64,000 bases of DNA from Escherichia phage UoN_LG358_1. Location of the stretch: sequence record OK570374, one strand, 5' to 3'. The translations under genes were made by a program, and so were the position numbers. Under the pieces are notes generated by a model. That model made no database searches and was not told where the DNA came from. It saw nothing but the letters and a program-made list of their open reading frames with translations. Below, piece by piece: positions 47,274 to 63,930 of this stretch. Positions within the stretch are counted from its first letter, which is position 1, and each line of letters starts with the position of its first letter.

Positions 47274-47275
47274 GG

Positions 47276-47728: not shown

Positions 47729-47779
47729 TTTTCAGTATCAGATTTGAGAAATTATTTTATATCAAAATATTTAAAGTTG

Positions 47780-48475: not shown

Positions 48476-48696
48476 AGATATTCCTTAAATTCATTAATCT
48501 GTTTAGATATTTTATCATTAATTGATATAAGCGGTACTTGTCCTTGGAACCAAGCGATACTCATAGCTTCGTCGCGAATCTCGTTTAGTTGAAGCAATAA
48601 CGTAGATTGATGACCGCGCCACCAAGCATCTTCGGGTTTGTTAATTTCAATAGCATTAATCAACTTATCAAAATCATCAATATCAAGAGTAAACAT
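48463..48696 (-). CDS. hypothetical protein (77 aa)
   Basis: ORF. Confidence 0.4.
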   Translation of the reverse strand: MFTLDIDDFDKLINAIEINKPEDAWWRGHQSTLLLQLNEIRDEAMSIAWFQGQVPLISINDKISKQINEFKEYLCRA

Positions 48697-48705
48697 ATTT
48701 GTTCC

Positions 48706-50031
48706 TTATACAAAGAAAACATCATGGCGGCCACGAGTTGCACCCACATAAAGAAGTTCTAGCTTAAACTTATTATCGCTGCTTACGTGAATACACGGAG
48801 TATAAATGAAACTACTATCTACAGAAATACCCTGAGCTTTATGGAACGTTGAACAAGGTAAAGCTTTAACCTTATGAAATTTTCGTTTAGCATCCCAGAA
48901 TTCTGACCAAGGAGCTTTACCGCCTTTATTCCAGTTTTTATAAGTATCTGCCGTCTTTGCCAAGAAAAACTGAAATTTGTTCATTTCTTGTTCGTCAGAT
49001 ATTACATTAATTTTCTCACGAGCATATTCTTCATCGTCATAAGTTTCTACATCTAAAACCCAGTGACGAATTAGATGTTCACCAGATACTCCCTTTGCTC
49101 CCAAGAATGAAGATGTGTAATCTGCACTTAGAATACGAACATATTGACCATTAGTAAATAATGTTTCATGGAATTTTTTTCCCTCAAATACAAGTTCCCT
49201 CATTAAAGGTTCTTGCATAACAATAACTTCTCCTACTACGAACGCTTCTTCCGTTTGATATAAACGTCTACGAATGATAGAGTTTAATTTATCAACCGAC
49301 TTATTTGTGAATGCGAGCATTCGGTTTTCAAACAAATCTTCCGGTGATTTGACGATACTAAAATATTGCATCATAAAATCTTTAAGTGCCGTTGTACTTG
49401 TAAATCCATGCACACCATGACCATCAACAGTTTTTTCGTAAATCCATGAACCGTTTCTTATATCAGTAGCAACATCAATAATCGGAGCGTTACTGCGCAT
49501 TACTTCAGTAAGATTTAATTGTTTAAAATCTTTATGAATAAAGAAAGGAGATATATGAGCTTCTGTTTCTCCAGGGTCAACCGGACGAATTTGAGCGACA
49601 TCTCCAATAGCGACTATAGTACACCATTTAGGAATTGAAGCCATTAGTATTTTAAATAATTTGCGGTCCCACATTGAAGCTTCGTCACATATTAGCACTC
49701 GGCATGATGCTAAATCTGGCACTTCTTTTTGTTCAAACAACATACTTTCTTCATATGTTGTGGGGTTAATTTTTAAAATTTTATGAATAGTATTAGCTTC
49801 CATGCCGGACAATTTGGTTAATACTTTTTTGGCTGCATGTGTAGGAGCCGTCAAAATAATACCAGTTTCGCCAGTAGAAACTAAATGCTCCATGATAAAT
49901 TTTGTTAACGTAGTTTTACCAGTACCCGCTGGACCGTTGATAGTAACATGGTTTTTCTTTTCTTTTATAGCTCTAATAGTTTCATCAAATGCTAGTTTCT
50001 GGCCAGAAGTCAGCTGCTCAAATGTAATCAT
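48706..50031 (-). CDS. dda: Dda DNA helicase (SF1B)
   Basis: 441 aa; Walker A GPAGTGKTT; ...VLICDEASM...NKSVDKLNSIIRR...FHKAQGISVD...LLYVGATRGRHDVFFV matches recalled T4 Dda. Confidence 0.9.
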   Translation of the reverse strand: MITFEQLTSGQKLAFDETIRAIKEKKNHVTINGPAGTGKTTLTKFIMEHLVSTGETGIILTAPTHAAKKVLTKLSGMEANTIHKILKINPTTYEESMLFEQKEVPDLASCRVLICDEASMWDRKLFKILMASIPKWCTIVAIGDVAQIRPVDPGETEAHISPFFIHKDFKQLNLTEVMRSNAPIIDVATDIRNGSWIYEKTVDGHGVHGFTSTTALKDFMMQYFSIVKSPEDLFENRMLAFTNKSVDKLNSIIRRRLYQTEEAFVVGEVIVMQEPLMRELVFEGKKFHETLFTNGQYVRILSADYTSSFLGAKGVSGEHLIRHWVLDVETYDDEEYAREKINVISDEQEMNKFQFFLAKTADTYKNWNKGGKAPWSEFWDAKRKFHKVKALPCSTFHKAQGISVDSSFIYTPCIHVSSDNKFKLELLYVGATRGRHDVFFV

Positions 50032-50327
50032 ACCACTGATACCCTTTTAACACTTAATGTGTTCATAATTTGTCTGTTCATTCTACTTTCAATTTCAGAA
50101 AGCTTTTTAAACTTCATTTCAACTTTATCGAACCAGAAACGACGTTTCTTAATTGTAGTTTCTACTTTACCGACATTCAATATATGAGTAAGATAAGTTT
50201 TTAGCTGCTCATAATGCTTCACAGCATCATCAAATTTTTCATAGATTGTAGCCTTTCCAGATTCGAAGTACGGGAGTTCAAACCCGTCTTTATCTTTGTA
50301 GACTAACATGTATCCATAGTGCATCAC
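50028..50327 (-). CDS. hypothetical protein (99 aa)
   Basis: ORF upstream of dda. Confidence 0.4.
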   Translation of the reverse strand: MMHYGYMLVYKDKDGFELPYFESGKATIYEKFDDAVKHYEQLKTYLTHILNVGKVETTIKKRRFWFDKVEMKFKKLSEIESRMNRQIMNTLSVKRVSVV

Positions 50328-51106
50328 ATTTTGCCTCGGATAAGTTGTAACAATGTTGCAGAAAGTGGAAGACCTTTTTTCAGCTTCGCTTTATCCAAAC
50401 GAGATAAATTTTGGAAACGAGTAAGACCTTGAATAATAATATCATAATCTTTCACGGTGATTTCTGCTTTGCTATTCTTTTTGGATGCAGCGCCTGAAGT
50501 TACAGCTTCAGAAGACGGGTATTTTTCAAATATTCTCTTTAATGTTTTAATTCCGCCTTTGATGCGAGTTTCTAGAGAATCGCGAGTGTCTTTCTGTATT
50601 CCGGCTTGCTTAAGATGACTGCGGCGGGCCTGCACGTTTGCCCAAATGCGTTTAGCTTCTTCACGGCGGACACCGGAAATTTTAGACCAATCAGGCTCTT
50701 TGTTCCAATCATGAGTTTCTAATACAAAGTCAGAATGATTGAGGTCAACAGCAGGTTCTACAACTTTGTTTTTAGAGTCAACGGCGGAAACGATGCGCGC
50801 AGCTAGTTCTTCTTGCTTTTTAATGAGGTCATCAATTTCGAAGTTGGCGCGCAGTTTATTGTACTTCATTTTAACAGGAATAACGTTGCCTTCTACATAT
50901 CCTTTGTTGTTATCAAACCGCTCGAGAGTCATTTGGTCAGGTCCAAGTTCCTTCTTGAACTTTTCTCCTGAATATGCACAAGTATCTTGCTCCATGATGT
51001 TCATCAAGTACTTCAAAGAAAGATTAAATTCTTTACTTCTAGAAGAAGCACTTTTGTATGTATGAACCAAACGTTGAGCGATAACAATTTCACGAGGCAT
51101 GGCCAT
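50324..51106 (-). CDS. hypothetical protein (260 aa), in the position of T4 srd
   Basis: ORF with early promoter upstream; identity not verified. Confidence 0.4.
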   Translation of the reverse strand: MAMPREIVIAQRLVHTYKSASSRSKEFNLSLKYLMNIMEQDTCAYSGEKFKKELGPDQMTLERFDNNKGYVEGNVIPVKMKYNKLRANFEIDDLIKKQEELAARIVSAVDSKNKVVEPAVDLNHSDFVLETHDWNKEPDWSKISGVRREEAKRIWANVQARRSHLKQAGIQKDTRDSLETRIKGGIKTLKRIFEKYPSSEAVTSGAASKKNSKAEITVKDYDIIIQGLTRFQNLSRLDKAKLKKGLPLSATLLQLIRGKM

Positions 51107-51161
51107 AACGATATTCCTTATTTGCTTTTTATGCGAAGATGGTATAATGGTTTCAAGGATT

Positions 51162-51191
51162 ATTCTAATACACTCTATCCGGAAAGTAAAC
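51162..51191 (-). promoter_or_regulatory. early promoter-like element (GTTTAC-N18-TAGAAT)
   Basis: - strand GTTTAC 51191..51186 with weaker -10. Confidence 0.4.
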
Positions 51192-51193
51192 GG

Positions 51194-51826
51194 TTAGAAT
51201 GAATAAAAATCCAAATGATATACAGTATATGACGGAGATAAAGGGTCATACTGTAACTCTTCAATCTCCACTATCTCAAATTGTGTTCCAATAGGGAACA
51301 TCCATTCATCTTCTCCATTGACCATTTCAAGTTTATCCAGTCTTTCATCAAAAATAAAATCTGGGTCTATGCTGTGCATAAATTCTGTGTCTGGCGCAGC
51401 CAGAAGCATATTCAGTGCGTGCTCTTGATAGTTAAAAGCAAATGGGCAATTACGTAATGACAAAATAGTATGAGTACCATACACACTCCCTCCAGCGAAT
51501 TGTCTTGCTGTGGAAAAATCTGATGTAAATGACGTAACTCGGTCATCAGCAATAATTCTTCCTACAGCCATATTTTTCAACCAAGCTTCGGTACGTTTTG
51601 ACACTCCTCTGTAGAGTTCAACTGGAACGTCAGAACTAATATGCTTACGTATAATTTTGTCCAGTTCTACATGCAAAGTTTTGTCAATTTTATCATTCAT
51701 ACACTGCCAAAGTATGCTCTGTTCAAAATCACTGAACATCTTAATTTTTTCTTCATACAATCCATAGAGATTGTTATCAACTATGTTACAAACGATTTCA
51801 TTAAGCTGAGAATTTGTGTATAACAT
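51194..51826 (-). CDS. ADP-ribosyltransferase (ModA/ModB-like)
   Basis: 210 aa; R-S-E triad candidates: LYRGVS, FTSDFSTA, FEIVEIEE; position of T4 modA/modB. Confidence 0.55.
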   Translation of the reverse strand: MLYTNSQLNEIVCNIVDNNLYGLYEEKIKMFSDFEQSILWQCMNDKIDKTLHVELDKIIRKHISSDVPVELYRGVSKRTEAWLKNMAVGRIIADDRVTSFTSDFSTARQFAGGSVYGTHTILSLRNCPFAFNYQEHALNMLLAAPDTEFMHSIDPDFIFDERLDKLEMVNGEDEWMFPIGTQFEIVEIEELQYDPLSPSYTVYHLDFYSF

Positions 51827-51852
51827 AATAGCCTCCGTAGTTTACAGAAGCT

Positions 51853-51882
51853 ATCATAACACATTTTGACTGGGATGTAAAC
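51853..51882 (-). promoter_or_regulatory. T4-type early promoter (GTTTAC-N18-TATGAT)
   Basis: - strand GTTTAC 51882..51877, TATGAT 51858..51853. Confidence 0.55.
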
Positions 51883-51884
51883 GG

Positions 51885-52079
51885 TTATTCTGTCCACGGA
51901 GCCCAAGGAGGAGGGTCTAACCAGATAGAAGAGAGTTCTTCTACGAAAGTGTCGTTGAGTTTTACACCGTGCCGTAAGGCAAGAACAAAAAGCTCTTGTT
52001 TGATTTCAGCACGTCGGTTGCCAAATGCTTCTGAATTTTTTGACTGGTCTTCTTCAAATAAATCAAATAAATCCGACAT
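51885..52079 (-). CDS. hypothetical protein (64 aa)
   Basis: ORF. Confidence 0.4.
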   Translation of the reverse strand: MSDLFDLFEEDQSKNSEAFGNRRAEIKQELFVLALRHGVKLNDTFVEELSSIWLDPPPWAPWTE

Positions 52080-52564
52080 TACATACCTCTGATGTATTTG
52101 ACAGCAGTTACGGACATAGTTTTTTCTTCAAATCCATTACGACGAATTCCAGTATCATTAAAATGATGCCAAATGAATTTTTCCAATTCAACGATGTGTT
52201 CAGGAGTATTTACAATAAATTTTTTGAAGATTTTTGTGCCATATCCATCTGTATGACACAAAGCTTCGCTAAAATTGAATTCTGGAAAAATGTATTTCTG
52301 ACTGAGCAAAGTTTCTACCATACCAAACGGTGAATTTTCGCATTTGTCGATATTACAATCATGAATGATTTCTAACAATGCATTTTCGGGAATTCGCATT
52401 TTCATAAACTGCTTTTCTAGATTATTATAATGCTCGTTTGAAAAAGGTGCAGGTTCACCATACTGAGTTAGAACAACTTCAAACTTTTCTCGAGTTTCTT
52501 CTACTCGTCGATTAGTTCTTTTATAGAATTTCACTACAAATGACTTTGTTTTCATATTTTTCAT
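52079..52564 (-). CDS. hypothetical protein (161 aa)
   Basis: ORF. Confidence 0.45.
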   Translation of the reverse strand: MKNMKTKSFVVKFYKRTNRRVEETREKFEVVLTQYGEPAPFSNEHYNNLEKQFMKMRIPENALLEIIHDCNIDKCENSPFGMVETLLSQKYIFPEFNFSEALCHTDGYGTKIFKKFIVNTPEHIVELEKFIWHHFNDTGIRRNGFEEKTMSVTAVKYIRGM

Positions 52565-52578
52565 GATATTCTCTTATT

Positions 52579-52782
52579 TTATGACTTATCGCCGTAAATG
52601 TTAGTTAAAAGCTTTTTAGCTTCTATTGAAATACGTTTAGCTTCTTGTTCATTGCGCCAATTTCTAGCGTATTCTTCCGCTTCATGTTGAAGTTCTTGCT
52701 CAACTTTAGCAACCCATTCATCATCTAAATGAGTAGGTGTTTCAAACCAATTTTTGAATTCTTCGTACCATCGTTTAATCAT
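52579..52782 (-). CDS. hypothetical protein (67 aa)
   Basis: ORF. Confidence 0.4.
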   Translation of the reverse strand: MIKRWYEEFKNWFETPTHLDDEWVAKVEQELQHEAEEYARNWRNEQEAKRISIEAKKLLTNIYGDKS

Positions 52783-53018
52783 AACCAGGATGTCCCAAAG
52801 CGAATAACAGATTTTTCACCTACAAAGTGAAAGTGAGCCTCATATACGACACGTAAAGCAGTACCTTCCTCACGGTAGCAATGAATAAAGATGTCTACTA
52901 AATCATACAGATTTGGGCTATTTGTGATAAACAAATGTTCATGAATTAAGCGATTTGCAATAAGACTATTGATACCACCAACTTCTTCAACTGGCTTCAT
53001 CCAGTTAGATGTTTTCAT
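52779..53018 (-). CDS. hypothetical protein (about 79 aa)
   Basis: start moved to the internal Met; the track's N-terminus runs through the soc terminator hairpin. Confidence 0.4.
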   Translation of the reverse strand: MKTSNWMKPVEEVGGINSLIANRLIHEHLFITNSPNLYDLVDIFIHCYREEGTALRVVYEAHFHFVGEKSVIRFGTSWL

Positions 53019-53054
53019 AATATTATCCTCATTTGATAAAAGAATTATATCATA

Positions 53055-53082
53055 TCGTTTAAAAGCAAAAAAGGGACTCCCG
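53055..53082 (-). terminator. intrinsic terminator after soc (GGGACUCC-UUCG-GGAGCCCC + U-run)
   Basis: hairpin and U-tract in - strand sense 16 nt after soc stop. Confidence 0.6.
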
Positions 53083-53097
53083 AAGGAGCCCCTGCAA

Positions 53098-53343
53098 TCA
53101 ACCACCTGGTACTACTGGCGGTACGCCTTTAAACATATCAGCGTTTTTGGCAATCCAAGCGTCTCTTTGAGCTTCTTCAAAAACGGTAGAATACGCCGCT
53201 TTTTCGGAAGGGAAGAGTTGATAATGAGAACCAGCAATTTGATGCACGTCGGAGTAAAGCTTAAAAGCTACAGAAACTTCCATACCTTTTACTTCACCGT
53301 CGGCATTTGTATGGTCAAACGTTTTTACGTTAACATAACTCAT
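53098..53343 (-). CDS. soc: small outer capsid protein Soc
   Basis: 81 aa; ...YVNVKTF...EVSVAFKLYSDVHQIAGSHYQLFPSEKAAYSTVFEE matches recalled T4 Soc. Confidence 0.8.
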   Translation of the reverse strand: MSYVNVKTFDHTNADGEVKGMEVSVAFKLYSDVHQIAGSHYQLFPSEKAAYSTVFEEAQRDAWIAKNADMFKGVPPVVPGG

Positions 53344-53370
53344 GTAATTCTCCTTTGTTGATTACATGAG

Positions 53371-53378
53371 TATTTATT
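53371..53378 (-). promoter_or_regulatory. candidate late promoter for soc (AATAAATA, 7/8)
   Basis: near-consensus late motif 28 nt upstream of soc ATG. Confidence 0.3.
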
Positions 53379-53529
53379 AATAGTTATTTAAAGCCTCTAC
53401 TATATCTGCTATGATATCTTCAGAATCGCCAATAAGTTCTCGAAGAGATTTGTACTTATCTTCTGGACTTAGAGGATTTAAGCCCCAATATTTTATTAAA
53501 GCATTTTCAATATCAGAATATGAAATCAT
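53377..53529 (-). CDS. hypothetical small protein (about 50 aa)
   Basis: read from - strand (MISYSDIENALIKYWGL...); ATG overlaps gene 56 stop. Confidence 0.3.
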   Translation of the reverse strand: MISYSDIENALIKYWGLNPLSPEDKYKSLRELIGDSEDIIADIVEALNNY

Positions 53530-54047
53530 TAGTATCCTCGGTTTTGCCGCTCAAAGTTTTCAGCATTTTTCAGATAGTAAAGTTTAAAGATTTCTTCAGC
53601 CGACATGCCTAATCCTTGGAACATATTCAACACAAAGTGAAGAATATCAATCATTTCAAATTTAATTTCTAATTGGTCTTTTGAAGACATTTCAGAAATA
53701 AGACGATTGCGTAATTCTGCATGTTGTGCTTTCCATGGTTTCCAGACAGAAGAAGCAGCCTTCTCGCCATTAGACATACCGCCCAGAGAAGTCAACAGCT
53801 CACGGAATTCGTCATCGATATAATCTTTCTGATTACGTAGCCAATCAACAACTTCACCAGCTTTAGCTAAGTCATCTGGATTGCGGTTATAGTCAGGTTT
53901 ATCATTTGCTAGACGCACTTGCAATGATTTTTGCATGTCAAGCATCACTTGAAGCGGGTCAATACCAGCATTCACAGCATCATAATACGCATTTTCTGCT
54001 TTTTCATTGCCAGAGATGAGTTGAGAACATTCATTAAAATGGGCCAT
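53529..54047 (-). CDS. 56: dCTP pyrophosphatase gp56
   Basis: MAHFNEC...DPLQVMLDMQ...IDDEFRELLTSLG...DQLEIKFE...ILHFVLNMF.GLGM.AEEIFKLYYLKN.ENF.RQ.RGY matches recalled T4 gp56; start set at MAHFNE. Confidence 0.85.
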   Translation of the reverse strand: MAHFNECSQLISGNEKAENAYYDAVNAGIDPLQVMLDMQKSLQVRLANDKPDYNRNPDDLAKAGEVVDWLRNQKDYIDDEFRELLTSLGGMSNGEKAASSVWKPWKAQHAELRNRLISEMSSKDQLEIKFEMIDILHFVLNMFQGLGMSAEEIFKLYYLKNAENFERQNRGY

Positions 54048-54087
54048 TATATTTCCTGTCAAAGTATTAAATAGTTTAGGAGGATTT

Positions 54088-54297
54088 ATGTCTGAAAAAA
54101 TTAAAACCCCAGAAAATAAAAATCTGAAGTCTCAATTCGTTGAGAACAAAGGTAAATTAATCTTAGTTGGAGTTATTACAGCTGTAATAACAGCATGGAA
54201 CTATATTATCATCCCTTTCGCATTAGCATATGGGTTTACTTTACCTCCAATTCCATTGGATAAAGTTATTCATTTCATTATGCTCGGAGGATTTTAA
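54088..54297 (+). CDS. small membrane protein (69 aa) on the + strand
   Basis: strong SD AGGAGG 6 nt before ATG; two hydrophobic segments; no - strand ORF exists in this 230-nt interval. Confidence 0.35.
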   Translation: MSEKIKTPENKNLKSQFVENKGKLILVGVITAVITAWNYIIIPFALAYGFTLPPIPLDKVIHFIMLGGF

Positions 54298-55322
54298 ACT
54301 CCAATCTTTGAGTAATTCTTAAGGCGAAGTTGAGCCATCAAACCCGAAGATATATTTTCGGAAATATATTTTTCGATGTCTTCAACTTTCGCCCCTTCAT
54401 TTTTTATCATATCATTAATGTCTTTTTCTTTCCATTGAGATTTATCCCAAAACACAACTCTTTCGCCAGCGTCTATCAAACGCTTCATTCGCTTGATTGT
54501 GTCTTCTTTTCTTGGTTCATGGTCCATAATCCATACTCTATCTTCTTTAAATGGAACCAAATCCAAATCAATAGCGCCACCGGTGATGGCAATAGCATTG
54601 CCCAAGAACAATGAGTCTATCGGGCCTTCTAATACAAAAATATTTTGACCGGTCTTTGCTGTGTCTAATCCGTATATTTTTGTTGCATGTTCGTTTCGTT
54701 TAATTGTTATGTATTTTTGAGGGGCGTCTTTACGCAATGCTCTTCCTTGAAAACTTTCAATAATACCTTTCTCATTAAAGATTGGAATTACTAAACGAGG
54801 CTCATTACGTTCTGTTTTATAAGTTCCGGGATTAACGGAATTCACCAAAGCTGGCCATTCCATCGTAAAATACAAACGGTTCCAACGAGATTTTGGAATA
54901 CAACGATGTTTAACGTATTTTATAATAGGATGCTCTTCTGACAAACTATCTAAGCGGCTGCAATGAACTAATTTAATTCCTTCTGGTTCTTTAATTTCAA
55001 CTTTTTTCACCTCTGGTTTTGTATCAGGCTTAAAAGTCATTTTGTCCTTTCTGAGTTCTAAAATAAACTCACGGTATAAATCAGGTTCATATTCCTTTAA
55101 ATACACCCCAATTGGTTTTCCATAATCACAGTTATAACACTTCAAAAATACATCATCGCCCGTGCCATAAGCCCAAAAACGAGCTTTTAATGCGTCTTTC
55201 TGTGAGTCGCCACAGACTGGGCAGCGGCAGTTTAACTTGAATTGGGATACGTTGTTTACTTGACGAAAGCGAGGTAAGTGAGATAATGCACGAAATGCAT
55301 ACTCGTTATGGACCCATGACAT
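54294..55322 (-). CDS. 61: DNA primase gp61
   Basis: 342 aa; zinc ribbon CRCPVCGDS...CYNCDY; ...YLKEYEPDLYREFI matches recalled T4 gp61. Confidence 0.9.
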   Translation of the reverse strand: MSWVHNEYAFRALSHLPRFRQVNNVSQFKLNCRCPVCGDSQKDALKARFWAYGTGDDVFLKCYNCDYGKPIGVYLKEYEPDLYREFILELRKDKMTFKPDTKPEVKKVEIKEPEGIKLVHCSRLDSLSEEHPIIKYVKHRCIPKSRWNRLYFTMEWPALVNSVNPGTYKTERNEPRLVIPIFNEKGIIESFQGRALRKDAPQKYITIKRNEHATKIYGLDTAKTGQNIFVLEGPIDSLFLGNAIAITGGAIDLDLVPFKEDRVWIMDHEPRKEDTIKRMKRLIDAGERVVFWDKSQWKEKDINDMIKNEGAKVEDIEKYISENISSGLMAQLRLKNYSKIGV

Positions 55323-55954
55323 TATACTCTCCTAAAATCGTCTATAATTTTTTGATAACTAATATCCGGATATCCCAATTTAATTGCTAATTTTCTAAAT
55401 TTAACATATCCTATATTACCATTAGAGTTCCAAAGCTCTTTTAATTCATCGTAGTATTTCCATTGAGGGCCTCTTTTCATTTCTGAAATTATTTTAGAAA
55501 CATGTGGTCTACGTTTGCCATATGTTGCGCTTCCACTACCCTTTCTTTTTTCTGACCACATCTTTTTGGTTTCAATGGAATGTGTTTTTCCATAAAATGG
55601 GTTTCCTTTACCGGAGTAAAGACTAGATTGAGTTTTTGATAATTGAGTTCTAATCCAACTATATTCCTTATTGTTTCTGCTAGTATATTTTCCATTTATA
55701 GTTAATTGCTTAGCAGCGCATAATAACGAATAATATTGCTTTGTGTTCAATTTTTTATATATTTTTGATAACAATTGATGAACTACGAAATGTTCTGATG
55801 CTGTAAGCAAAACCAAATTATCATCACTATCTAGTCCTCCAATAGATTTTGGAATTATATGATGTTTTTCTGAATAAAAATTTAATTTAGATTTATCCAG
55901 TCCTCGTAATTTAGCTTTGTTGATAATAGAATCATGTATCTTTTGATAATTCAA
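55322..55954 (-). mobile_element. free-standing HNH homing endonuclease between genes 41 and 61
   Basis: 210 aa; HNH motif HHIIPKSIGGLDSDDNLVLLTASEHFVVH; start codon is TTG (AGGAGA-N5-TTG AAT TAT) where paralogues have ATG AAT TAT. Confidence 0.75.
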
Positions 55955-55966
55955 TGCATTCTCCTA

Positions 55967-55990
55967 AGTGGCCTTATTTCTAAGGCCACT
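55967..55990 (-). promoter_or_regulatory. perfect 10-bp hairpin (AGUGGCCUUA-GAAA-UAAGGCCACU) abutting the HNH SD
   Basis: inverted repeat read directly; 3' arm ends 1 nt before AGGAGA. Confidence 0.4.
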
Positions 55991-55993
55991 ATA

Positions 55994-56464
55994 TTACAAT
56001 TTCTTAAGATTAACTTTAATGCGCTTACGTTTTGAGGGGATTTGTTCTGGACCCTTGTTGGTTATTGCTCCGGTTGTGGTACCAGAGGCGATATTCTGGA
56101 CACTTCCACCGGAATCACCGGCTACCATGTCCTCGAACATAGGGAGAGCATCAAATATCTCTTTCTGTTCGGATTCGGTTATATTGTATCTAGAAGCGAT
56201 TGAAGACCAAGCCGACATCATAGAAGCTATTCCATTTAAACCGGGAACAGTTGACATCATTCGCTTCATTGAACGAACCGCAGCATGAAACGGAGTATAC
56301 GCTGCCTTTTCTTCAGGGGTTGATGGTCGTTTAAGCACGCTGCCTTTTTCGTCAATGATTTTTGCTTCATATGCGTTCCATTCGGTGAATGGTTTTTGCA
56401 TTAGACGAATAAACTTATATGCATAAACGGCATCTATACCGTTTTTAATAGTGCTCATAAACAC
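55994..56464 (-). CDS. hypothetical protein (156 aa)
   Basis: ORF. Confidence 0.45.
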   Translation of the reverse strand: MFMSTIKNGIDAVYAYKFIRLMQKPFTEWNAYEAKIIDEKGSVLKRPSTPEEKAAYTPFHAAVRSMKRMMSTVPGLNGIASMMSAWSSIASRYNITESEQKEIFDALPMFEDMVAGDSGGSVQNIASGTTTGAITNKGPEQIPSKRKRIKVNLKKL

Positions 56465-56476
56465 CTCCTACGATAT

Positions 56477-56674
56477 TTAATCAATAACAAAAACGGCTTT
56501 ATTTCCGTTTGCGTCTGTTACTTCATAAGTATCTTCGTCATAGAGAGGTATAAACCATTCTACATCAGTATCTGACATAACAGAAATAATATTTTCTGAA
56601 ATTTTTGTCATTTCGTATTCTTCAAATAAACGAAACACTTCGATATTTGTACTTGTGCAAGTTGCAGTAGACAT
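56477..56674 (-). CDS. hypothetical acidic protein (65 aa)
   Basis: ORF. Confidence 0.4.
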   Translation of the reverse strand: MSTATCTSTNIEVFRLFEEYEMTKISENIISVMSDTDVEWFIPLYDEDTYEVTDANGNKAVFVID

Positions 56675-56686
56675 TTAGCCTCTCAT

Positions 56687-56977
56687 TTAAAGTCCAATCC
56701 ATTCCAGCACTTCAGGAACTGATTTATTTTCACAATAAAGATTAGTGCCAGCAACTACCAAATCATTCTGGTCGACATCTTCAATGAGCATCTTTTGATT
56801 CGCATTAGCTCCAGCAAGAAGGTCTTTAATTAGCTTAGGTTTTACCGTATCCCAATCACCTTCGACAAATTTAAGGCATTGAATAGAATTATAATCAGCT
56901 ACTCCCGGAGTTGCATGGGCTGGAACTGCTGAACATGATGCTACTACCAATACGAGACTTGCAATTAACTTTTTCAT
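56687..56977 (-). CDS. secreted/periplasmic protein with signal peptide (about 96 aa)
   Basis: MKKLIASLVLVVASCSAVPAHA signal peptide; start set after promoter at 57006-57035. Confidence 0.45.
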   Translation of the reverse strand: MKKLIASLVLVVASCSAVPAHATPGVADYNSIQCLKFVEGDWDTVKPKLIKDLLAGANANQKMLIEDVDQNDLVVAGTNLYCENKSVPEVLEWIGL

Positions 56978-57005
56978 TATTACTCTCCAGTTTGTTGATA
57001 AAGTA

Positions 57006-57035
57006 ATAGTATCACATCCTTCCATGGATGTAAAC
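57006..57035 (-). promoter_or_regulatory. T4-type early promoter with palindromic spacer
   Basis: - strand GTTTAC 57035..57030, TACTAT 57011..57006. Confidence 0.6.
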
Positions 57036-57037
57036 GG

Positions 57038-57262
57038 TCAACTCAAACTTTTCATTGCTTCTTCAAACGTTAATTTTTTAACTGAAAGATACCGCGCCGA
57101 GCTAATTTTCTTACCATTGCTAAGGACGACCAGTGTCCCGTAGTCCCATCCTGATAAATCTATTGAGTTCCATATATCAACACATACTTGTAGTGACTCA
57201 TCCGCTACTATGAACTTCTCGTGACCATCTCGGTCACGATTGGCAATTAAAACATAAATCAA
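57038..57262 (-). CDS. hypothetical protein (74 aa)
   Basis: ORF overlapping gene 41 stop. Confidence 0.4.
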   Translation of the reverse strand: MIYVLIANRDRDGHEKFIVADESLQVCVDIWNSIDLSGWDYGTLVVLSNGKKISSARYLSVKKLTFEEAMKSLS

Positions 57263-58698
57263 AATTTAAGTTCCTCTGCAAGTGCGTCCAGCTTAGCTCG
57301 GGCTGATGTCTGGTCCGCGCGTTGTTGTCTATTAGCCTCGGCTTTTCGTTGCTGAGCTCCGGATGTTTCAGTAACTGGAGTTGGCTGAGTTCCACCTTCC
57401 TGTGCAATTTCAACCCAGCGTTGATTTCCTTTCTTAACGCCTACCGCAAACTTATTCCAAATATTTTTATCGCCATAACGAGATTTAATCTGCTTGATGA
57501 GTTGTTGTCCCATCTGAGCAAGTTCTTCTGTCTCAATCACAGCAAGCATGAAGTCCGCCGTTGCCGGTAAGCCAGCTGATTCTGCAATGTCGGACATATT
57601 CATATCAGAAGCATCCCATGCACCACGACCAACCTGAGCCGCAGACCAGACGACAGTTTCTGATTCTACCGCCAGCGCACGGAGTTCTTCGGCAATTGCT
57701 TTCACTAAAGTGTAACTGTTTTCAGTATAAACACGAATACGGCAAGAACCACATATTCCTAGATAGTCAATCATAATGATATCAGGAACAAAATTCTTTT
57801 TAAGTTTTAACTCATTTAGTAAAGCTCTAAATGTGTTCGCATTAGCTCCGCCGGTAGGATATTGTTTAATGATTAAACGGCCAAGAGTATTTTTATCTCG
57901 CCATTTTTCCATCTTACCTTTGTATTCTGCATATGACACATTGCCGTCATCAATATCATCCAAAGATACATCAAGTAAGTTAGCATCAATACGTTTAGCG
58001 CAGACCTCCTCGGCCATCTCCATGGAGATATAAAGAACATTCTTACCAGTTTGAAGATAATCAGCTGCTAAAGAACACAATCCAAGAGACTTACCAACGT
58101 TAACACCAGCCATGAGAATGTTGAGAGTGCCAGTTTCTGCCCCGCCCTTAGTGATACGGTTCAAAATATTCATCAAGAATGGAACTTTACGAGCCTTGTT
58201 CTGATACGCTAACCAACGAGCTTCATAATCTTCCATCCAATCATGACCGACATAAGAGTCAAAACTAATAGAAAGAGCTTGACGCATAATGTCTGGAATT
58301 GCTCCAACATCCGGTAATTTTTTGTTTCTTTTTTCTGGCGGTAGTTCAGCGTTCGTTTGAATTTCAATGATTTTTGATGTTGCATTATACATCGCATGAG
58401 ACTGTACATATTTCTCAGTCTCTTTTACCAACCATGCTTGGTCTTCTGGCGTATCTGCTAATTTATCAATTAATTTTTTGGCTTGTTCAGCTTCAGATTC
58501 ACCTAGAGTTGAATTGTCTAACGCAATATTCAAAGCATTGATTGAAGGGACAGATTGATATTCGTTGATATGTTTTTGTAATAAGTTAAACACATTTTTA
58601 GCCGGGCCATGTTCAAAATATTCTGAATCCATATATGGCCAAACTTTTGCGAAATATCCTTGATTAAAAATAAGATGCGATAATATTGTTTCTACCAC
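57259..58698 (-). CDS. 41: replicative DNA helicase gp41 (DnaB-like)
   Basis: 479 aa; Walker A GVNVGKS; RecA-like core. Confidence 0.9.
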   Translation of the reverse strand: MVETILSHLIFNQGYFAKVWPYMDSEYFEHGPAKNVFNLLQKHINEYQSVPSINALNIALDNSTLGESEAEQAKKLIDKLADTPEDQAWLVKETEKYVQSHAMYNATSKIIEIQTNAELPPEKRNKKLPDVGAIPDIMRQALSISFDSYVGHDWMEDYEARWLAYQNKARKVPFLMNILNRITKGGAETGTLNILMAGVNVGKSLGLCSLAADYLQTGKNVLYISMEMAEEVCAKRIDANLLDVSLDDIDDGNVSYAEYKGKMEKWRDKNTLGRLIIKQYPTGGANANTFRALLNELKLKKNFVPDIIMIDYLGICGSCRIRVYTENSYTLVKAIAEELRALAVESETVVWSAAQVGRGAWDASDMNMSDIAESAGLPATADFMLAVIETEELAQMGQQLIKQIKSRYGDKNIWNKFAVGVKKGNQRWVEIAQEGGTQPTPVTETSGAQQRKAEANRQQRADQTSARAKLDALAEELKF

Positions 58699-58708
58699 GG
58701 TAACCTCA

Positions 58709-59068
58709 TTAAAATAATTTGAAACGTTTTTTATTACGCTCAGCTAACGCTTGCTCAATTTGAATTTTAACACATTTTTCAACATGCGGAGCTAGTTCTG
58801 CTTTTCTATCTTCGGATAATGTAGAAAAATCTACAGAAATTTCGTTTCCATTGTGATTTATTGATGTGACATAAACTATATGCGAAGACCCATCTTCTAA
58901 TGTTAGCAAAATTTCTTGTACTATATTAGCCATTGCCTTTTTGACAATATCTAATGATTTTTGGTAAACTCTTTCTGTCCTCTCAAATTCCCCCTCCTGA
59001 GAGGGGGCTTCTTCGACGACTTCAAGATTTAAATCTAATTCGCTTAAATCATAATCGTCTTGTTTCAT
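58709..59068 (-). CDS. 40: gp40-like protein (head vertex assembly), positional
   Basis: 119 aa ORF between uvsX and 41 as in T4. Confidence 0.5.
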   Translation of the reverse strand: MKQDDYDLSELDLNLEVVEEAPSQEGEFERTERVYQKSLDIVKKAMANIVQEILLTLEDGSSHIVYVTSINHNGNEISVDFSTLSEDRKAELAPHVEKCVKIQIEQALAERNKKRFKLF

Positions 59069-60231
59069 TATTCGTCCATCATAGAGTCAAGGTCATCTTC
59101 AATTGCTGCCGGAGACGGAGCATGAGAACCTTCGGGAGCTTTGAAAACCTCAGTTTTTGAATTAATCAATGCATCAACTTCAGCATCAACAACCGCATTA
59201 CTATCAATTGCGCCCAGTTGATATTTACGTTTAATTGCATCACGGAATGGTTGATGCTTGAACATCGGTCCCCAGAAATCTACGCATGATGTAGCTGCGG
59301 CGCGCCATGATTTTTCTTCACGAACCATTTCACCGGTTTCAATGTCCAAATATTCGCGAGCATACCAACCATTTTTTGGTTTAACTACAAACCCAAGCTC
59401 CAATGCCATTTCAAGCAAACCGGAATACGGGTCAATACCACCATCAAATTTAACATCAATAAAGAACTTAGATTTCTCTTTAACTGTACGAGATTTTTCT
59501 GCGTTTAAAACAAACTGATAACCTTGCAAATCAGTACCGTCTTTAATCTGACGTTTGCCGATAATGAACACGGTATCTGCAGAATACATCGGGCCAGTAC
59601 CACCGGTCATTACCGTTTTACTGAACATTTCAATAGTTTCAATTGTATGGTTAACTGCAACACATGGAATGTTCTTAATACTGAAATATGGAGTAACGAT
59701 ACGGAACAGAGATTTCAATGCTTTCGCACGTGTCATATCTGCAACCGATTTTTCATTCAACGCGTCTTCAGTTTCTTTCTTGGAAGCGAGGTTACCAATT
59801 GAGTCGATGAATACAATAACCTTTTCACCACGCTCAATTTCTTCCAGCTGATTTACCATATCAATCTTAAGTTGTTCAACAGACTGAACAGGAGTATGAA
59901 CAACACGGTCAGGGTCAACGCCCATAGATTTCAGATAAGCCGGAGTAATACCGAATTCACTATCATAGAACAGACAAATTGCATCTGGATGTTTTGTCAT
60001 ATAAGCACTGACCATTGTCAGAGACATATTCGATTTAAAGTGCTTTGACGGACCAGCAAAGATTGTTAAACCAGACTGCATACCACCATCTAATGCCCCA
60101 CTGATTGCAATGTTCAGCATCGGAATTTTAGTACGGATAACGTCTTTTTCGTTGAAGAATTTTGACTTAGTTAGTTCCGCGGTCATTTTAGAAGTGGATG
60201 CTTTAATCAGACGAGATTTTAAATCAGACAT
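59068..60231 (-). CDS. uvsX: UvsX recombinase (RecA-like)
   Basis: 387 aa; Walker A GPSKHFKS; acidic C-terminus. Confidence 0.9.
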   Translation of the reverse strand: MSDLKSRLIKASTSKMTAELTKSKFFNEKDVIRTKIPMLNIAISGALDGGMQSGLTIFAGPSKHFKSNMSLTMVSAYMTKHPDAICLFYDSEFGITPAYLKSMGVDPDRVVHTPVQSVEQLKIDMVNQLEEIERGEKVIVFIDSIGNLASKKETEDALNEKSVADMTRAKALKSLFRIVTPYFSIKNIPCVAVNHTIETIEMFSKTVMTGGTGPMYSADTVFIIGKRQIKDGTDLQGYQFVLNAEKSRTVKEKSKFFIDVKFDGGIDPYSGLLEMALELGFVVKPKNGWYAREYLDIETGEMVREEKSWRAAATSCVDFWGPMFKHQPFRDAIKRKYQLGAIDSNAVVDAEVDALINSKTEVFKAPEGSHAPSPAAIEDDLDSMMDE

Positions 60232-60512
60232 TCATTTTTTCCATAAGTCTCCATTATATTTTTCTCATAGGTTTAAAGGATAGAGTAATTATATCAAAAC
60301 AAATTTAAAGCGATTTAACTTTTATTACGCACTTAATTGGTGAGTTGACCATAGATTTTCGGGGTTTAGCCATTTTAACCTCAGGTACATCCTCAGTTCT
60401 TTTAATCCAACTTTTGTATGGACAGTATTTTTCTTTCTTGGTCATGATATTTCCGGTTTAAATTTTTGAAAGAAGGTACACTAGAAGTATACCTTCGCGA
60501 AAATTTTTAAAC

Positions 60513-61589
60513 TTACAGGTCAATAGCCTTGCGGAACTCTTCTTGCCAAATTGGTTTTTCATCAAGATATTTTTGAAGAATTTTGTGCTGATATTTCAAA
60601 GTTTCAACACGGAACTCTTCATCTTCTTTAATCTTGTTGATTTTATCTACTAATTCTTGACGATTACTCACATAAAAGAAATCATTACCTTCCATGATAT
60701 TCATGTCAGGGTCAAACGTGCTATCGAAGAATGCCACTGCAGTAGATGCTAGAGCTTCCCATACACGAGGAGTGATTTGGTTGTTATCGTAGGTTTTATC
60801 ACCTAATACAATAGTAGCATACGCGGTTGAGTTGCGTTGAACCATTTCACGAGAGTCTACTTTACCGGGGAATACCGGCGGAGTCGTCCAAGGAAATTCT
60901 GGGTTCTTGAACTGTTCTGCTTTCACTGAACCAAAGAATTCAACATCCAATCCAGTATCAAATAGGTATTCAACCATTTTAGCTTCACGGTTACCAGAAC
61001 GGAAAGTGCCGCCATAAATCAGGTCTCGCATTTTGATGCCATCTGCGGCAATCTTAAAGACACTATGATACATTTTATGACGGTCCAAAGCAAAATGAAC
61101 GAATTCTAGTTTATCGGATAAACATCCAACTAAACGATCAGAATGAATTTTCTTGCATTGCTCTAGATTTCTTCCTTGAGATACAATACGCATTGGAGAT
61201 GTTACAATGAATTGTTCTTCTTTATATTTACTGGACCATTTCTTTTTAGACATCCTTCGCCAAGCTTGCTCAAACGGAAGACGAATATCGGTGAACAAAT
61301 AATAAATTTTTGATTTATACTTATTCATGAACATATAAGCTTCTTTGTTCATCTTATTTTCTTCGCCGCCATAGAAGTTCAGAGCAGCATTAACGACCAA
61401 TAAGCGGTCATACACATTCGGGTCTTTTACTGAATCGAAAGAAATTCCATACTGTGTATTTTTCATTGAAATAAGGTCAACATCAAGACCCATATCTTTT
61501 AAACATTCGGACAAATAAATTGTTTCTGAAGCAGGGGTTGTTTTAAACCCCTGGATGTTATTGCCCATATTAATAATAGCAATTTTCAT
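60513..61589 (-). CDS. bgt: DNA beta-glucosyltransferase
   Basis: 358 aa; MKIAIINMGNN...ETIYL...KYKSKIYYLFTDIRLPF...IYGG.FRSG.RE.KMVE.LFDTGL...KAIDL matches recalled T4 BGT. Confidence 0.85.
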   Translation of the reverse strand: MKIAIINMGNNIQGFKTTPASETIYLSECLKDMGLDVDLISMKNTQYGISFDSVKDPNVYDRLLVVNAALNFYGGEENKMNKEAYMFMNKYKSKIYYLFTDIRLPFEQAWRRMSKKKWSSKYKEEQFIVTSPMRIVSQGRNLEQCKKIHSDRLVGCLSDKLEFVHFALDRHKMYHSVFKIAADGIKMRDLIYGGTFRSGNREAKMVEYLFDTGLDVEFFGSVKAEQFKNPEFPWTTPPVFPGKVDSREMVQRNSTAYATIVLGDKTYDNNQITPRVWEALASTAVAFFDSTFDPDMNIMEGNDFFYVSNRQELVDKINKIKEDEEFRVETLKYQHKILQKYLDEKPIWQEEFRKAIDL

Positions 61590-62422
61590 AGTGTCGGTTC
61601 AATCTCGCTAAATTTATGAAAAGCATCTGACTTCTGCTTTTTAGCAACACACATACGAAGTACTTTCAAAGGTTCATCAGTACCAAACATAGTTTTGGTT
61701 GGGTCACCTTCTGATTTCCACCGAGCTTGAGTTGGGAAGTCAGCATGAATTTTTTCCAGCGCTCTGTTCTGTTTAGCAGCATTACGCATAGATGATACAC
61801 CGCCTGGAGCTTGTCCTTTACCTGATTTAACGAGATATTTAAAAATCGCCAAATGAGGATAACCCATATTAATGAGTTTAAGAAACGCGTATGTATCTTC
61901 GGATAGGTCTACTATACCATATCCAATGTCATCGGCAGAAAGTTTGCTTAAATCATAAAAAGTATTTGTAAACCCGTAAGAGTTCTCACGGAAATGACCC
62001 CATTTAGAGTCAATCTTGAATATTGGCAAGCGAGCGTGACCATGATAAAAGCCGCAGTCCATCGCTGTTTCAACATAAAGACAAAGATTATTAAATTCAT
62101 CCCAGGTCATTCCAACATCATGGAGAATGCGCCGGTCATCTTTTTCGCGAATTTCCGTTGTATGAATAGTAGTATCATCATCCAACATCCAAATTCGTTG
62201 TCCTTGATACATTTCGGTGATTAAACGACGAGTACCAGCAATCCCATTTACATCATCCGGGATAGTTACTATTTTAGCAATTGTGCTATATCGAGTTTCG
62301 TATTCTTCTTTTTGAGACTCGCGAACTACAAGATGAGCGACATAACCTTCAGGGAACATGTCTAGGGCAGTAACTGCCCCGGCACGATTATAACTTGGAA
62401 TTACAAATTGAATCATTTCCAA
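61586..62422 (-). CDS. GT-A fold glycosyltransferase (second DNA glycosyltransferase candidate)
   Basis: 278 aa; FVIPSYNRAG start and DxD-type motif IWMLDDDTT. Confidence 0.5.
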   Translation of the reverse strand: MEMIQFVIPSYNRAGAVTALDMFPEGYVAHLVVRESQKEEYETRYSTIAKIVTIPDDVNGIAGTRRLITEMYQGQRIWMLDDDTTIHTTEIREKDDRRILHDVGMTWDEFNNLCLYVETAMDCGFYHGHARLPIFKIDSKWGHFRENSYGFTNTFYDLSKLSADDIGYGIVDLSEDTYAFLKLINMGYPHLAIFKYLVKSGKGQAPGGVSSMRNAAKQNRALEKIHADFPTQARWKSEGDPTKTMFGTDEPLKVLRMCVAKKQKSDAFHKFSEIEPTL

Positions 62423-63150
62423 TAACCTTTGTAATCTTTCTTTGGTATATGAGTTTCACCAGTGTGATAAAAATGGTCAACTAGATAAAATTGATTTTCA
62501 TATACATGGAGGCTTCCGGCGTTCCAAATAATGTCACCAACTACATATTTTTTATCGCGACCGCAGTTAAGTGTCTGTACTAATAATTCTAATACATGTT
62601 TTTGCCAAGCATAGTCATTACGATAACCTGCCCAGCAATCGTTGCTTCTCATACTCACAACAGCATGAACTTGCTCATCGCGAATTAAGTATTGAACCGT
62701 GTTTGTACACATGAAATCACTCATACCGTCACGGTTATAATCAGTCTGCATACTTGGACGAGTATAAATCATAATTCCACGGCGAGAATCTGGATTGACA
62801 CTCAGTTCAGCCGCACAACTTGCAAATTGGCTATAATTATCTTTATTCCAAATCGCCCATCCGTAGTTTGAGTTAATCTCGCCGTTTTTGGATGAAATCT
62901 GGTCCCAAATTGCTGGAGTTTTTCCTGGAATGTCTTTAACGAATAAACTTTGAGACTTATACCATTCTAATTCGCGGGCTACATACTCATCATTAACTGA
63001 ACCAAAAATAAGTTCTTCATCTGCAACAAAAGACGCGCCGATAATTTCAATAGTTTTTACGCCAGTTTTGTCAATAACAAACTCTTCATTTTCGAGAGCT
63101 ACAGCAAATTCCTGACGAATGTCTTGTACTGTCAAAGGTGTGATAATCAT
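62413..63150 (-). CDS. 42: dCMP hydroxymethylase gp42
   Basis: 245 aa; ...DKTGVKTIEIIGASFVADE...RELEWYKSQSLFVKDIPG...PDSRRGIMIYTRPSMQ.DYN.DGMSDFMCTNTVQYLIRD matches recalled T4 gp42. Confidence 0.9.
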   Translation of the reverse strand: MIITPLTVQDIRQEFAVALENEEFVIDKTGVKTIEIIGASFVADEELIFGSVNDEYVARELEWYKSQSLFVKDIPGKTPAIWDQISSKNGEINSNYGWAIWNKDNYSQFASCAAELSVNPDSRRGIMIYTRPSMQTDYNRDGMSDFMCTNTVQYLIRDEQVHAVVSMRSNDCWAGYRNDYAWQKHVLELLVQTLNCGRDKKYVVGDIIWNAGSLHVYENQFYLVDHFYHTGETHIPKKDYKGYWK

Positions 63151-63434
63151 TTTGCCTCTTTAATTACGATAATTTGTTGAGGTTGGTTATTTTTTCGCTC
63201 GGCGACGAATGCCCAAATTAAAGCAACCAACCATCCAATGAAAGTCCAACCAAAAATAAGATTTAAAAAGAAAATTCCAACATTAGATTTTGTCCCACGA
63301 AGAAGAGCAATAATCCACGGAAGAAAATACGCTAAAAACGCTAAGAACAATGAACCAAAACCAAGTGCCGCTGTACCCAATACGATAGTTTCCATTATAA
63401 TTTCCTCTATTTTATCAAATGATTTATTTAGCAT
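63147..63434 (-). CDS. small two-TM membrane protein, Imm-like by position
   Basis: two hydrophobic helices; directly upstream of gene 42. Confidence 0.45.
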   Translation of the reverse strand: MLNKSFDKIEEIIMETIVLGTAALGFGSLFLAFLAYFLPWIIALLRGTKSNVGIFFLNLIFGWTFIGWLVALIWAFVAERKNNQPQQIIVIKEAK

Positions 63435-63870: not shown

Positions 63871-63900
63871 TTTATTTTCCTCATTTGTTTTGATGAGATA

Positions 63901-63930
63901 ATAGTAACACATCCTTCCATGGATGTAAAC
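63901..63930 (-). promoter_or_regulatory. T4-type early promoter with palindromic spacer
   Basis: - strand GTTTAC 63930..63925, TACTAT 63906..63901. Confidence 0.6.

Follow-up and report, generated by a model that had tools for sequence, protein, structure and literature searches.

We analysed a stretch of 64,000 nucleotides from Escherichia phage UoN_LG358_1 (sequence record OK570374), hereafter referred to as the window, in which the segment 55322-57262 lies between the primase gene 61 and the helicase gene 41. Comparison with related phages indicates that, in this segment, Gelderlandvirus has its own version of a variable region found between genes 41 and 61 in all T4-like phages examined. 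We consider it highly probable that the segment is a variable accessory region carrying a Spackle gene (sp) and three other small open reading frames (ORFs), orf74, orf65 and orf154, together with one inserted MobE-like HNH gene. The HNH gene, of 633 bp, is by the alignments the only true insertion in the region. Most of the biology described here is known, and the region is already annotated in public records. Modestly new are a MobE-like lineage that is dedicated to the junction of genes 61.1 and 61 in four genera, with an apparent takeover of the primase ribosome-binding site (RBS), and the listing of three genes, all uncharacterised, at a locus that is known for its counter-defence role. 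The features of the segment, with the two genes that bound it, are as follows.

54294-55322, minus strand: gene 61, primase, the downstream boundary (ORF list; annotated as DNA primase in STP4-a and S16)
55322-55954, minus strand: ORF with HNH and NUMOD3, 210 amino acids (aa), TTG start (Pfam, PHROG)
55967-55990, minus strand: stem-loop at the boundary of orf154 and the HNH gene (RNA folding, comparison with relatives)
55994-56458 (56464 for the 156-aa form), minus strand: orf154, 154 aa, or 156 aa from an upstream GTG (phrog_2086)
56477-56674, minus strand: orf65, 65 aa (phrog_3249)
56687-56977, minus strand: sp, Spackle homologue, a 96-aa precursor starting MKKLIASLVLVVASCSAVPAHA (Pfam T4_Spackle)
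56912-56977, minus strand: predicted signal peptide of Sp, residues 1-22 (sequence inspection)
57006-57035, minus strand: T4-type early promoter upstream of sp (exact motif match)
57038-57262, minus strand: orf74, 74 aa, TTG start (phrog_5421)
57259-58698, minus strand: gene 41, helicase, the upstream boundary (DnaB_C, E 5.5e-18; annotated as DNA primase-helicase in STP4-a and S16)

The order in the window is 41, orf74, early promoter, sp, orf65, orf154, hairpin, HNH gene and 61. An earlier note on this DNA, made from the sequence letters without database searches, had placed an HNH gene and four small ORFs between 61 and 41, and all of them were confirmed. By its nearest relatives, the window phage can be described as an S16/STP4-a-like Gelderlandvirus. 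The closest match to 54294-58698 is Salmonella phage STP4-a (Gelderlandvirus, Tevenvirinae), with 1 mismatch (megablast), and over 46882-64000 the window and STP4-a are 99.6% identical. Position 55989 is the sole difference from STP4-a in 10.4 kb around the locus; it is a C in the window and a T in STP4-a and all relatives. The S16-type phages match 54294-58698 at 99%, yet 14% of the query remains uncovered (megablast).

Gene content between 41 and 61

Genes 41 and 61 had been described in the earlier note as adjacent in T4, and the 1.9 kb between them in the window had been taken for an accessory insertion. The T4 annotation shows five genes between them, dmd, 61.4 (tifA), sp, 61.2 (adfA) and 61.1, which occupy about 1.65 kb (T4 record). 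The adjacency being false, the 1.9 kb was therefore not inserted into a replication operon as an accessory segment, and only the 633-bp HNH gene is inserted relative to close relatives. The interval of RB69 has eleven ORFs, including imm, imm.1, sp and a homologue of orf65. In Mineola and 5N, which are Klebsiella phages, in the Enterobacter phages KMB19 and EnA02, and in the Edwardsiella phage PEi20, gene 41 is followed by one or more small ORFs, sp, one or more further small ORFs, 61.1 and 61. The order 41 - x - sp - y - 61.1 - 61 is common to Jiaodavirus, Karamvirus, Kanagawavirus, Mosigvirus and T4. A synteny comparison had been proposed as a check on the insertion, with related phages that carry these ORFs at this junction in known core functions as its refutation; the outcome agrees in part with such a refutation, in that related phages do share the ORFs.

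According to the earlier note, a lineage-specific insertion of 1.9 kb split an adjacent 41-61 operon and carried a novel exported protein acting in exclusion or anti-defence. This view is refuted because the T4 annotation places genes between 41 and 61, and we leave it hardly any probability. The ORFs, the signal peptide, the promoter and the hairpin on which it drew are all real, and three of the five ORFs are without an assigned function. However, in T4, RB69 and members of four other genera, genes 41 and 61 are separated by several genes, whose order around sp and 61.1 is the same throughout, and the exported protein is a Spackle homologue that is already annotated so. The comparison corrects a false T4 gene order that would otherwise inflate the finding; the segment is the version that this lineage has of a conserved variable region.

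In RB69, the superinfection-immunity genes imm and imm.1 are located beside sp within the 41-61 region (603-4184 of the RB69 sequence compared), and both exclusion genes can therefore cluster in this region. In T4 and in STP4-a, imm lies beyond gene 42.

The HNH gene at the junction of 61.1 and 61

The alignment of the window with S16 has a single gap, of 633 bp at 55321-55953, which is exactly the HNH gene, and the flanks are otherwise 99% identical. The junction in S16 is composed of the stop of the 61.1-like gene, the hairpin, TTAGGAGAAT, and then the ATATG of gene 61. The HNH ORF of the window starts six bases after the GGAG (55961-55964) that precedes gene 61 in S16. The 3' end of the HNH ORF reads ...AGGAGAGTATAATG, and the new RBS of the primase, AGGAGAG, lies within the HNH gene, whose stop overlaps the ATG of gene 61 by one base (TAATG). 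The TTG was assigned as the start of the HNH gene because the N-terminus, MNY, is conserved in homologues that start with ATG. The point of insertion of the HNH gene is exactly between the RBS and the ATG of gene 61. In the arrangement that we propose, the Shine-Dalgarno sequence after the hairpin would originally have served gene 61 and would now serve the HNH gene, which would use the old hairpin and RBS of the primase for its TTG-initiated translation and would supply a new RBS and the overlapping TAATG to the primase.

The HNH ORF matches Pfam NUMOD3 with 25.4 bits (cutoff 20.4) and phrog_655, 'homing endonuclease', with E 5e-52, and its HNH motif aligns to solved HNH domains with E about 0.01. 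Residues H31, H32, N46, H55 and H59, as well as the NUMOD3 segment, are invariant in four homologues at the 61.1/61 site. A point to the contrary is the score against Pfam HNH, 21.0 bits, which is just under the gathering cutoff of 21.4, so that the gene was assigned to HNH on the basis of PHROG, NUMOD3 and the conserved motif. The GC content of the gene is 28.9%, compared with 36.9% for the window. Judged by query coverage, which is 85-86% (68% for CF-SP2), the gene is absent from nine Gelderlandviruses, S16, UTK0003, AKM_NP4, ABTNLPp2, Melville, STML-198, SEA1, CGG4-1 and CF-SP2; the junction itself was read in S16, Melville, CGG4-1 and CF-SP2. The closest homologues are found in 5N of Klebsiella (63% identity), in KMB19, VPA32 and Entb_43 (58%), and in PEi20 and PEi26 (49%). 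In the three contexts that were read, 5N, KMB19 and PEi20, the homologue is always located between 61.1 and 61. These same-site homologues belong to the genera Jiaodavirus, Karamvirus and Kanagawavirus, and more distant relatives of the HNH gene are found at other loci.

The HNH gene can be described, by homology and position, as a free-standing homing endonuclease that is probably spreading by intronless homing. In this process, the enzyme would, in mixed infections, nick or cut alleles that lack the HNH gene close to the 5' end of gene 61, and repair would copy the HNH gene into the cut allele. A different description, which we regard as unlikely, is that of a decaying or domesticated remnant, kept because its removal would disturb the translation of the primase. 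The weak TTG start codon and the Pfam HNH score just below the cutoff would fit a remnant, as would the dependence of the primase on an RBS within the HNH gene and on the TAATG coupling, and the presence of the linked 5' allele of the primase in a phage without the HNH gene. However, the ORF is full length, and four homologues with no more than 50-63% identity have the same catalytic and NUMOD3 residues without exception, which argues for purifying selection on the gene. Moreover, the gene occupies the same site in four genera and yet is missing from most of the phages in each of them, and this argues for ongoing gain and loss.

A homing endonuclease of this kind has well-known counterparts in the Mob proteins of T4 (MobA-E), especially MobE (PMC2988022). 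As in these, HNH is combined with NUMOD3 in a free-standing gene between conserved genes, the gene is present or absent among close relatives, and there is a UAAUG-type overlap of stop and start with the neighbouring gene. Furthermore, the PEi20 homologue of the window gene is annotated as mobE. Unlike MobE, which is located at nrdA/nrdB, the window gene is at the 61.1/61 locus and starts with TTG. It also differs in that the primase is coupled to the stop of the endonuclease gene, and in that the endonuclease gene appears to have taken over the RBS of the primase. This lineage would make the translation of the primase depend on the endonuclease gene, and it could serve as a tidy system for how free-standing endonucleases become hard to lose.

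The stem-loop at 55967-55990 was also seen by the earlier note, as a perfect 10-bp hairpin abutting the RBS of the HNH gene, and this description holds, with the GGAG at 55961-55964. The hairpin, which occurs once in the window, has a perfect stem of 10 bp and a loop of 4 nt. Its folding energy is -17.8 kcal/mol, with z = -4.9 against shuffled sequences, none of which folds as well; a scan of 53500-59000 with Rfam gave no match. A hairpin precedes the primase RBS in S16, Melville, CGG4-1, CF-SP2, EnA02 and Mineola as well, all of which lack the HNH gene, and the structure is therefore not associated with HNH. It predates the HNH gene and is not part of the mobile element. In the relatives, the hairpin has a core of 8 bp and an A.C mismatch, which is replaced by a G-C pair through the C at 55989 of the window, so that the stem is extended from 8 to 10 bp. 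The loop of Melville is inverted, and that of Jiaodavirus is different. In PEi20, the stem has an unrelated sequence, after which comes a T-run like that of an intrinsic terminator. At the boundary of orf154 and 61, it is the structure that is conserved and not the sequence.

That the hairpin belongs to the HNH gene was ruled out by its presence in the relatives that lack the gene. There is also little chance, in our view, that it acts as a regulatory element of the HNH gene by limiting translation of the endonuclease, as for I-TevI and the seg genes in T4. The hairpin does abut the RBS that the HNH gene uses, and a similar arrangement of hairpin and RBS is found at seg43(25) of Aeromonas phage 25 (PMC2988022). 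However, phages that lack the HNH gene have the hairpin before their primase RBS too, the RBS is not sequestered in the predicted fold, and the PEi20 equivalent has the terminator-like T-run. These three observations argue for a role at the orf154/61 boundary that was inherited by the HNH gene. Such a role may be in 3'-end formation, attenuation or stabilisation of the mRNA.

Next to the HNH insertion point, pairwise comparison revealed a hyper-variable segment in the primase gene.

55290-55322, minus strand: first 33 nt of gene 61

Three independent pairs of phages were compared, in each of which the first phage has the HNH gene and the second lacks it. Between the window and S16, 6 of the 7 primase differences are located in the first 33 nt of gene 61 (P 9e-8). 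The same 33 nt hold 11 of the 59 primase differences between KMB19 and EnA02 (P 1e-6), and 10 of 32 are in the first 36 nt between 5N and Mineola (P 1e-7). The 5' segment of gene 61 is thereby a candidate homing or recognition site, or a candidate co-conversion tract. The Mob enzymes of T4 have been reported to be nicking endonucleases and to promote events of this kind (PMC2988022). One observation counts against this candidate. The HNH-lacking phage CGG4-1 carries the primase 5' allele of the window, and the substitution cluster is therefore not strictly tied to the presence of the HNH gene; the cluster could reflect resistant alleles, past loss of the HNH gene or unrelated local variability. 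A third 5' allele is found in Melville and CF-SP2. In view of CGG4-1, it became less likely that the substitutions had come in strictly with the HNH gene.

The exported protein and its early promoter

The product of sp, which is annotated in RefSeq as 'spackle periplasmic', matches the Pfam family T4_Spackle (PF25676) with 82.8 bits (cutoff 27) and E 2.8e-23, over profile positions 1-94 of 96. It also matches phrog_1586, 'spackle periplasmic', with E 1.8e-31. The start at MKKL is backed by an RBS, GGAG, and by the annotations of Melville and CGG4-1. The N-terminal region is composed of MKK, a hydrophobic core (Kyte-Doolittle mean up to 2.65) and AHA-T at residues 20-23, where the hyphen marks the expected cleavage site, which parallels AMA-G of T4. 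On inspection of the sequence, this h-region and AHA-T form what appears to be a cleavable Sec-type signal peptide of 22 residues, in agreement with the earlier note, which had noticed such a peptide on one of the four small ORFs. The mature protein would have 74 aa and is acidic, and the mature form of T4 has 75 aa. The cysteines C34 and C82 of mature Sp correspond to the T4 disulfide C29-C81, with the context LYC(D/E) kept.

T4 Spackle is, after processing, a periplasmic helical protein of 75 aa with a C29-C81 disulfide, and it attaches to a basic patch on the tail lysozyme gp5, whose inhibition accounts for superinfection exclusion (PMC7677548). The lysozyme domain of gp5 from the near-identical STP4-a is 75% identical to that of T4. 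It keeps all nine of the nine T4 residues that contact Spackle, R181, R182, R187, L188, K189, R312, K321, G322 and R326, the list of which was taken from PMC7677548. Besides the same Pfam family, the window protein and T4 Spackle have in common a 22-residue signal peptide on precursors of 96 and 97 aa, respectively, two cysteines in an acidic mature protein, a gene between 41 and 61, an early promoter of the same type, and a gp5 (that of STP4-a) with all of the contact residues. Two results weigh against the assignment to Spackle. The sequence identity to T4 Sp is about 30% over 54 residues, in the N-terminal half only (BLASTP), and a phmmer search of the PDB with the window Sp did not retrieve the solved T4 Spackle chains. 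The exported protein is nevertheless best described, from its family matches, as a Spackle homologue, whose mechanism has already been solved in T4 and is thus not new. The earlier note had proposed it as a candidate exclusion factor; the Pfam match upholds the exclusion factor, and its novelty is lost, since RefSeq already has the annotation. By homology with T4 Spackle, Sp would be exported into the periplasm by its Sec signal peptide and would bind the tail spike gp5 of superinfecting phages at its lysozyme domain, blocking their entry.

Residues 12-15 of the signal peptide (56933-56944) read VASC, which is similar to a lipobox; T4 has LASC and CF-SP2 has VSSC at this position. Cys15 is kept in all of the homologues examined, and the GenBank record of Melville labels its Sp as a putative conserved lipoprotein. 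In the T4 literature, Sp is treated as a soluble, periplasmic protein that is cleaved after residue 22.

The promoter upstream of sp, 57006-57035, is an exact match to GTTTAC-N16-GATACTAT, in which GTTTACA is the -35 box and GATACTAT the extended -10 box. There are 14 copies of this motif in the window, versus 0.52 expected, and 13 of them are on the early-gene strand; the internal early promoter that the earlier note had read at this position is thus borne out as an exact T4-type motif. The copies share a conserved leader and an RBS downstream. A generic sigma-70 scan alone could not tell the promoter from chance, with 19 sites versus 19.2 expected in the scan. Both promoter boxes are kept upstream of sp in T4, RB69, Melville, CGG4-1 and CF-SP2, with a different spacer. 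The promoter reads TTTACA-17-TACTAT, which fits the consensus of the T4/PST PeSL promoters, TTTACW-N17-TAYWAT (PMC4122927).

The motif at 57006-57035 can be classed as a T4-type early promoter that matches the promoter part of the PeSL cassette. The likeness to the PeSL cassettes (PMC2839356, PMC4122927) comprises the promoter consensus, the many repeats in the early region, the position at the boundary of variable genes and a 30-mer shared by three copies in the window. A difference from these cassettes is that no terminator-like stem-loop was seen upstream of 57035 in the comparison, which covered the promoter part; the only inverted repeat, ACATCC/GGATGT, is located in the spacer. In the expected course of transcription, orf74 would be read through from gene 41, with which it has an overlapping stop and start (TTGA), and the early promoter would then drive sp, orf65 and orf154.

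The shared 30-mers are located at 38355-38384, 57006-57035 and 63901-63930, and they are identical or, in two of the copies, differ by one base. Their common spacer, ATCCATGGAAGGATGT, contains the inverted repeat. Identical promoter cassettes could act as recombination points that shuffle the genes between them.

orf74, orf65 and orf154 as candidate counter-defence genes

The TTG start of orf74 and the stop of gene 41 have 4 nt in common. The protein matches phrog_5421, of unknown function, with E 1.1e-22, and it has no match in Pfam or NCBIfam. A protein-cluster search gave only 1-2 clusters for orf74 and orf65, and tblastn on phage genomes found more. By tblastn, the homologues of orf74 are restricted to Gelderlandviruses and to Klebsiella Jiaodaviruses, where they are about 38% identical and located directly after gene 41. 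Within Gelderlandvirus, the slot of orf74 encodes 74 aa in S16, 63 aa in Melville and 96 aa in CGG4-1, and it is absent from CF-SP2. We describe orf74 as an accessory gene that is dispensable within the genus, and its product as a predicted small cytoplasmic protein.

The orf65 protein matches phrog_3249 with E 8e-31. Homologues are found in RB69 (ORF033c, within the 41-61 region of this phage), in many coliphages and in T1-like siphoviruses. The AlphaFold2 model of orf65, with a predicted local distance difference test (pLDDT) score of 95.3, is all-beta and consists of a six-stranded barrel. When compared with the PDB, the model gave nothing significant, the best match being the SH3-like 2B domain of Pif1 with E 0.05, and its matches in BFVD are all uncharacterised phage proteins. 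From this model, orf65 would be a well-folded small beta-barrel without a characterised relative. An exhaustive HMMER search also gave many weak stretches of similarity between orf65 and long surface proteins with immunoglobulin-like (Ig) repeats. The matching segments are Bact_surface_Ig-like repeats with a common strand motif, 'YxVTDxxGN', and the similarity was judged to be at the level of the motif, not homology.

The orf154 protein matches phrog_2086 with E 1e-72. Its residues 109-145 are 73% identical to T4 gp61.1, which has 54 aa. The family has 145 clusters across T4-like phages, from Salmonella to Acinetobacter and Cronobacter phages, and its motif MVAGDSGG...NIASGTTTGA..NKGP is nearly invariant. 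In RB69, the gene is split into ORF032c, which is 84% identical to the N-terminus, and 61.1. By these alignments, orf154 is a full-length member of the family, of which T4 gp61.1 is a C-terminal remnant. The AlphaFold2 model of orf154 (pLDDT 61.5) is helical, is moderately confident at residues 11-70 and has the conserved C-terminal motif disordered; a fold search with this model found nothing.

T4 gp61.1 (3967-4131 of the T4 sequence compared) begins with MKTFKEFIKE, in which 7 of 10 residues match MKTYQEFIAE. The latter is the capsid targeting sequence of the internal proteins of T4 (PMC8442874). The internal proteins of STP4-a begin with MKTYQEF(L/I)(A/N)E. At the segment aligned with the start of gp61.1, the full-length members of the orf154 family have LP(L/M)FE-D. 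This sequence would fit a cleavage site of the prohead protease, the motif of which is (L/I)xE. It is pure speculation that the conserved Gly-rich C-terminal peptide of the orf154 family could be packaged or processed.

The T4 region between 41 and 61 has been named an anti-toxin-antitoxin (anti-TA) island, as it encodes Dmd against RnlA, TifA (61.4) against ToxN and AdfA against DarT (PMC9391042). Srikant et al. proposed the remaining genes of the island as antitoxin candidates (PMC9391042). All T4 genes of this 41-61 locus that have been characterised act in counter-defence or exclusion. The window has the same interval, bounded by 41 and 61, with sp and 61.1 as anchors and an early promoter downstream of the first gene or genes. 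Unlike the T4 island, it has no detectable Dmd, TifA or AdfA, orf74 and orf65 fill the variable slots, and the member of the 61.1 family is full length. In Pfam and PHROG, none of the ORFs of the locus shares the family of Dmd (PF17587), TifA (DUF7279) or AdfA (PF23813); T4 gp61.2 itself matches Pfam AdfA. When the proteins of T4 and RB69 were searched by tblastn in the window and in the remainder of STP4-a, no match had an E below 0.15.

Two assignments to known antitoxins were tried and rejected. As a divergent Dmd, orf65 is 44% identical over 18 aa with E 0.22 (BLASTP) and has no Pfam or PHROG link to Dmd; RB69 carries both genes, and the six-strand barrel of the orf65 model has no PDB match below E 0.05. 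As a TifA, orf74 has no families in common with it.

We tentatively entertain the idea that orf74, orf65 and/or orf154 encode counter-defence (anti-toxin) proteins which replace Dmd, TifA and AdfA, although we consider it more doubtful than probable. It is suggested by the Dmd, TifA and AdfA genes in the same interval of T4, where the other genes have been proposed as candidate antitoxins (PMC9391042), and by the lack of a detectable homologue of these three in the window or the rest of STP4-a. Furthermore, orf74 has been gained, lost and resized within the genus, and orf65 has a patchy, moron-like distribution over unrelated phage groups. However, the small ORFs have no similarity in sequence or fold to known anti-defence proteins, the conservation of orf154 is too wide for it to be a host-specific factor, and position alone is weak evidence. 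A possible but not favoured history is that the lineage lost, or never had, Dmd, TifA and AdfA, and that at least one of orf74, orf65 and orf154/61.1 is a new counter-defence protein against Salmonella TA systems or other immunity. The anti-defence idea of the earlier note thus fits the published T4 island (PMC9391042), and no homologue of Dmd, TifA or AdfA was detected to back it. As these homologues are missing, a counter-defence role of orf74 and orf65 follows from their position only, which tells against a firm assignment. We would describe orf74 and orf65 as non-core accessory genes and, by position, as candidate counter-defence factors. Together with orf154, they are reasonable targets for anti-defence screens in Salmonella biocontrol phages.

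Further genes of the window were noted on both sides of the segment.

43113-43487, minus strand: C-terminal ORF of gene 39
about 43627-44340, minus strand: HNH-type ORF between the parts of gene 39
44422-45975, minus strand: N-terminal ORF of gene 39, 517 aa
54088-54297, plus strand: 69-aa ORF with a hydrophobic stretch, LILVGVITAVITAWNYIIIPFALAYGF (phrog_2024, E 2.4e-24)
58709-59068, minus strand: gene 40 (ORF list, Pfam)
59068-60231, minus strand: uvsX (ORF list, Pfam)

Gene 39, for the large subunit of topoisomerase II, is split on the minus strand over 43113-45975. The split gene is also found in S16, at 98% identity, with the HNH-type ORF annotated there as a homing endonuclease; gene 39 is uninterrupted in STP4-a and ABTNLPp2. 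When the HNH genes at gene 61 and at gene 39 are considered together, all four combinations of presence and absence are found among the window phage, S16, STP4-a and ABTNLPp2, and the two HNH genes assort independently. The 69-aa ORF on the plus strand and the 3' end of gene 61 share 4 nt. Matched by position, a small ORF on the opposite strand is also found in S16 and Melville (the same 210-nt coding sequence), in RB69 (ORF029w), and in Mineola and 5N. In T4, the interval that this ORF holds in the window is occupied by dam.

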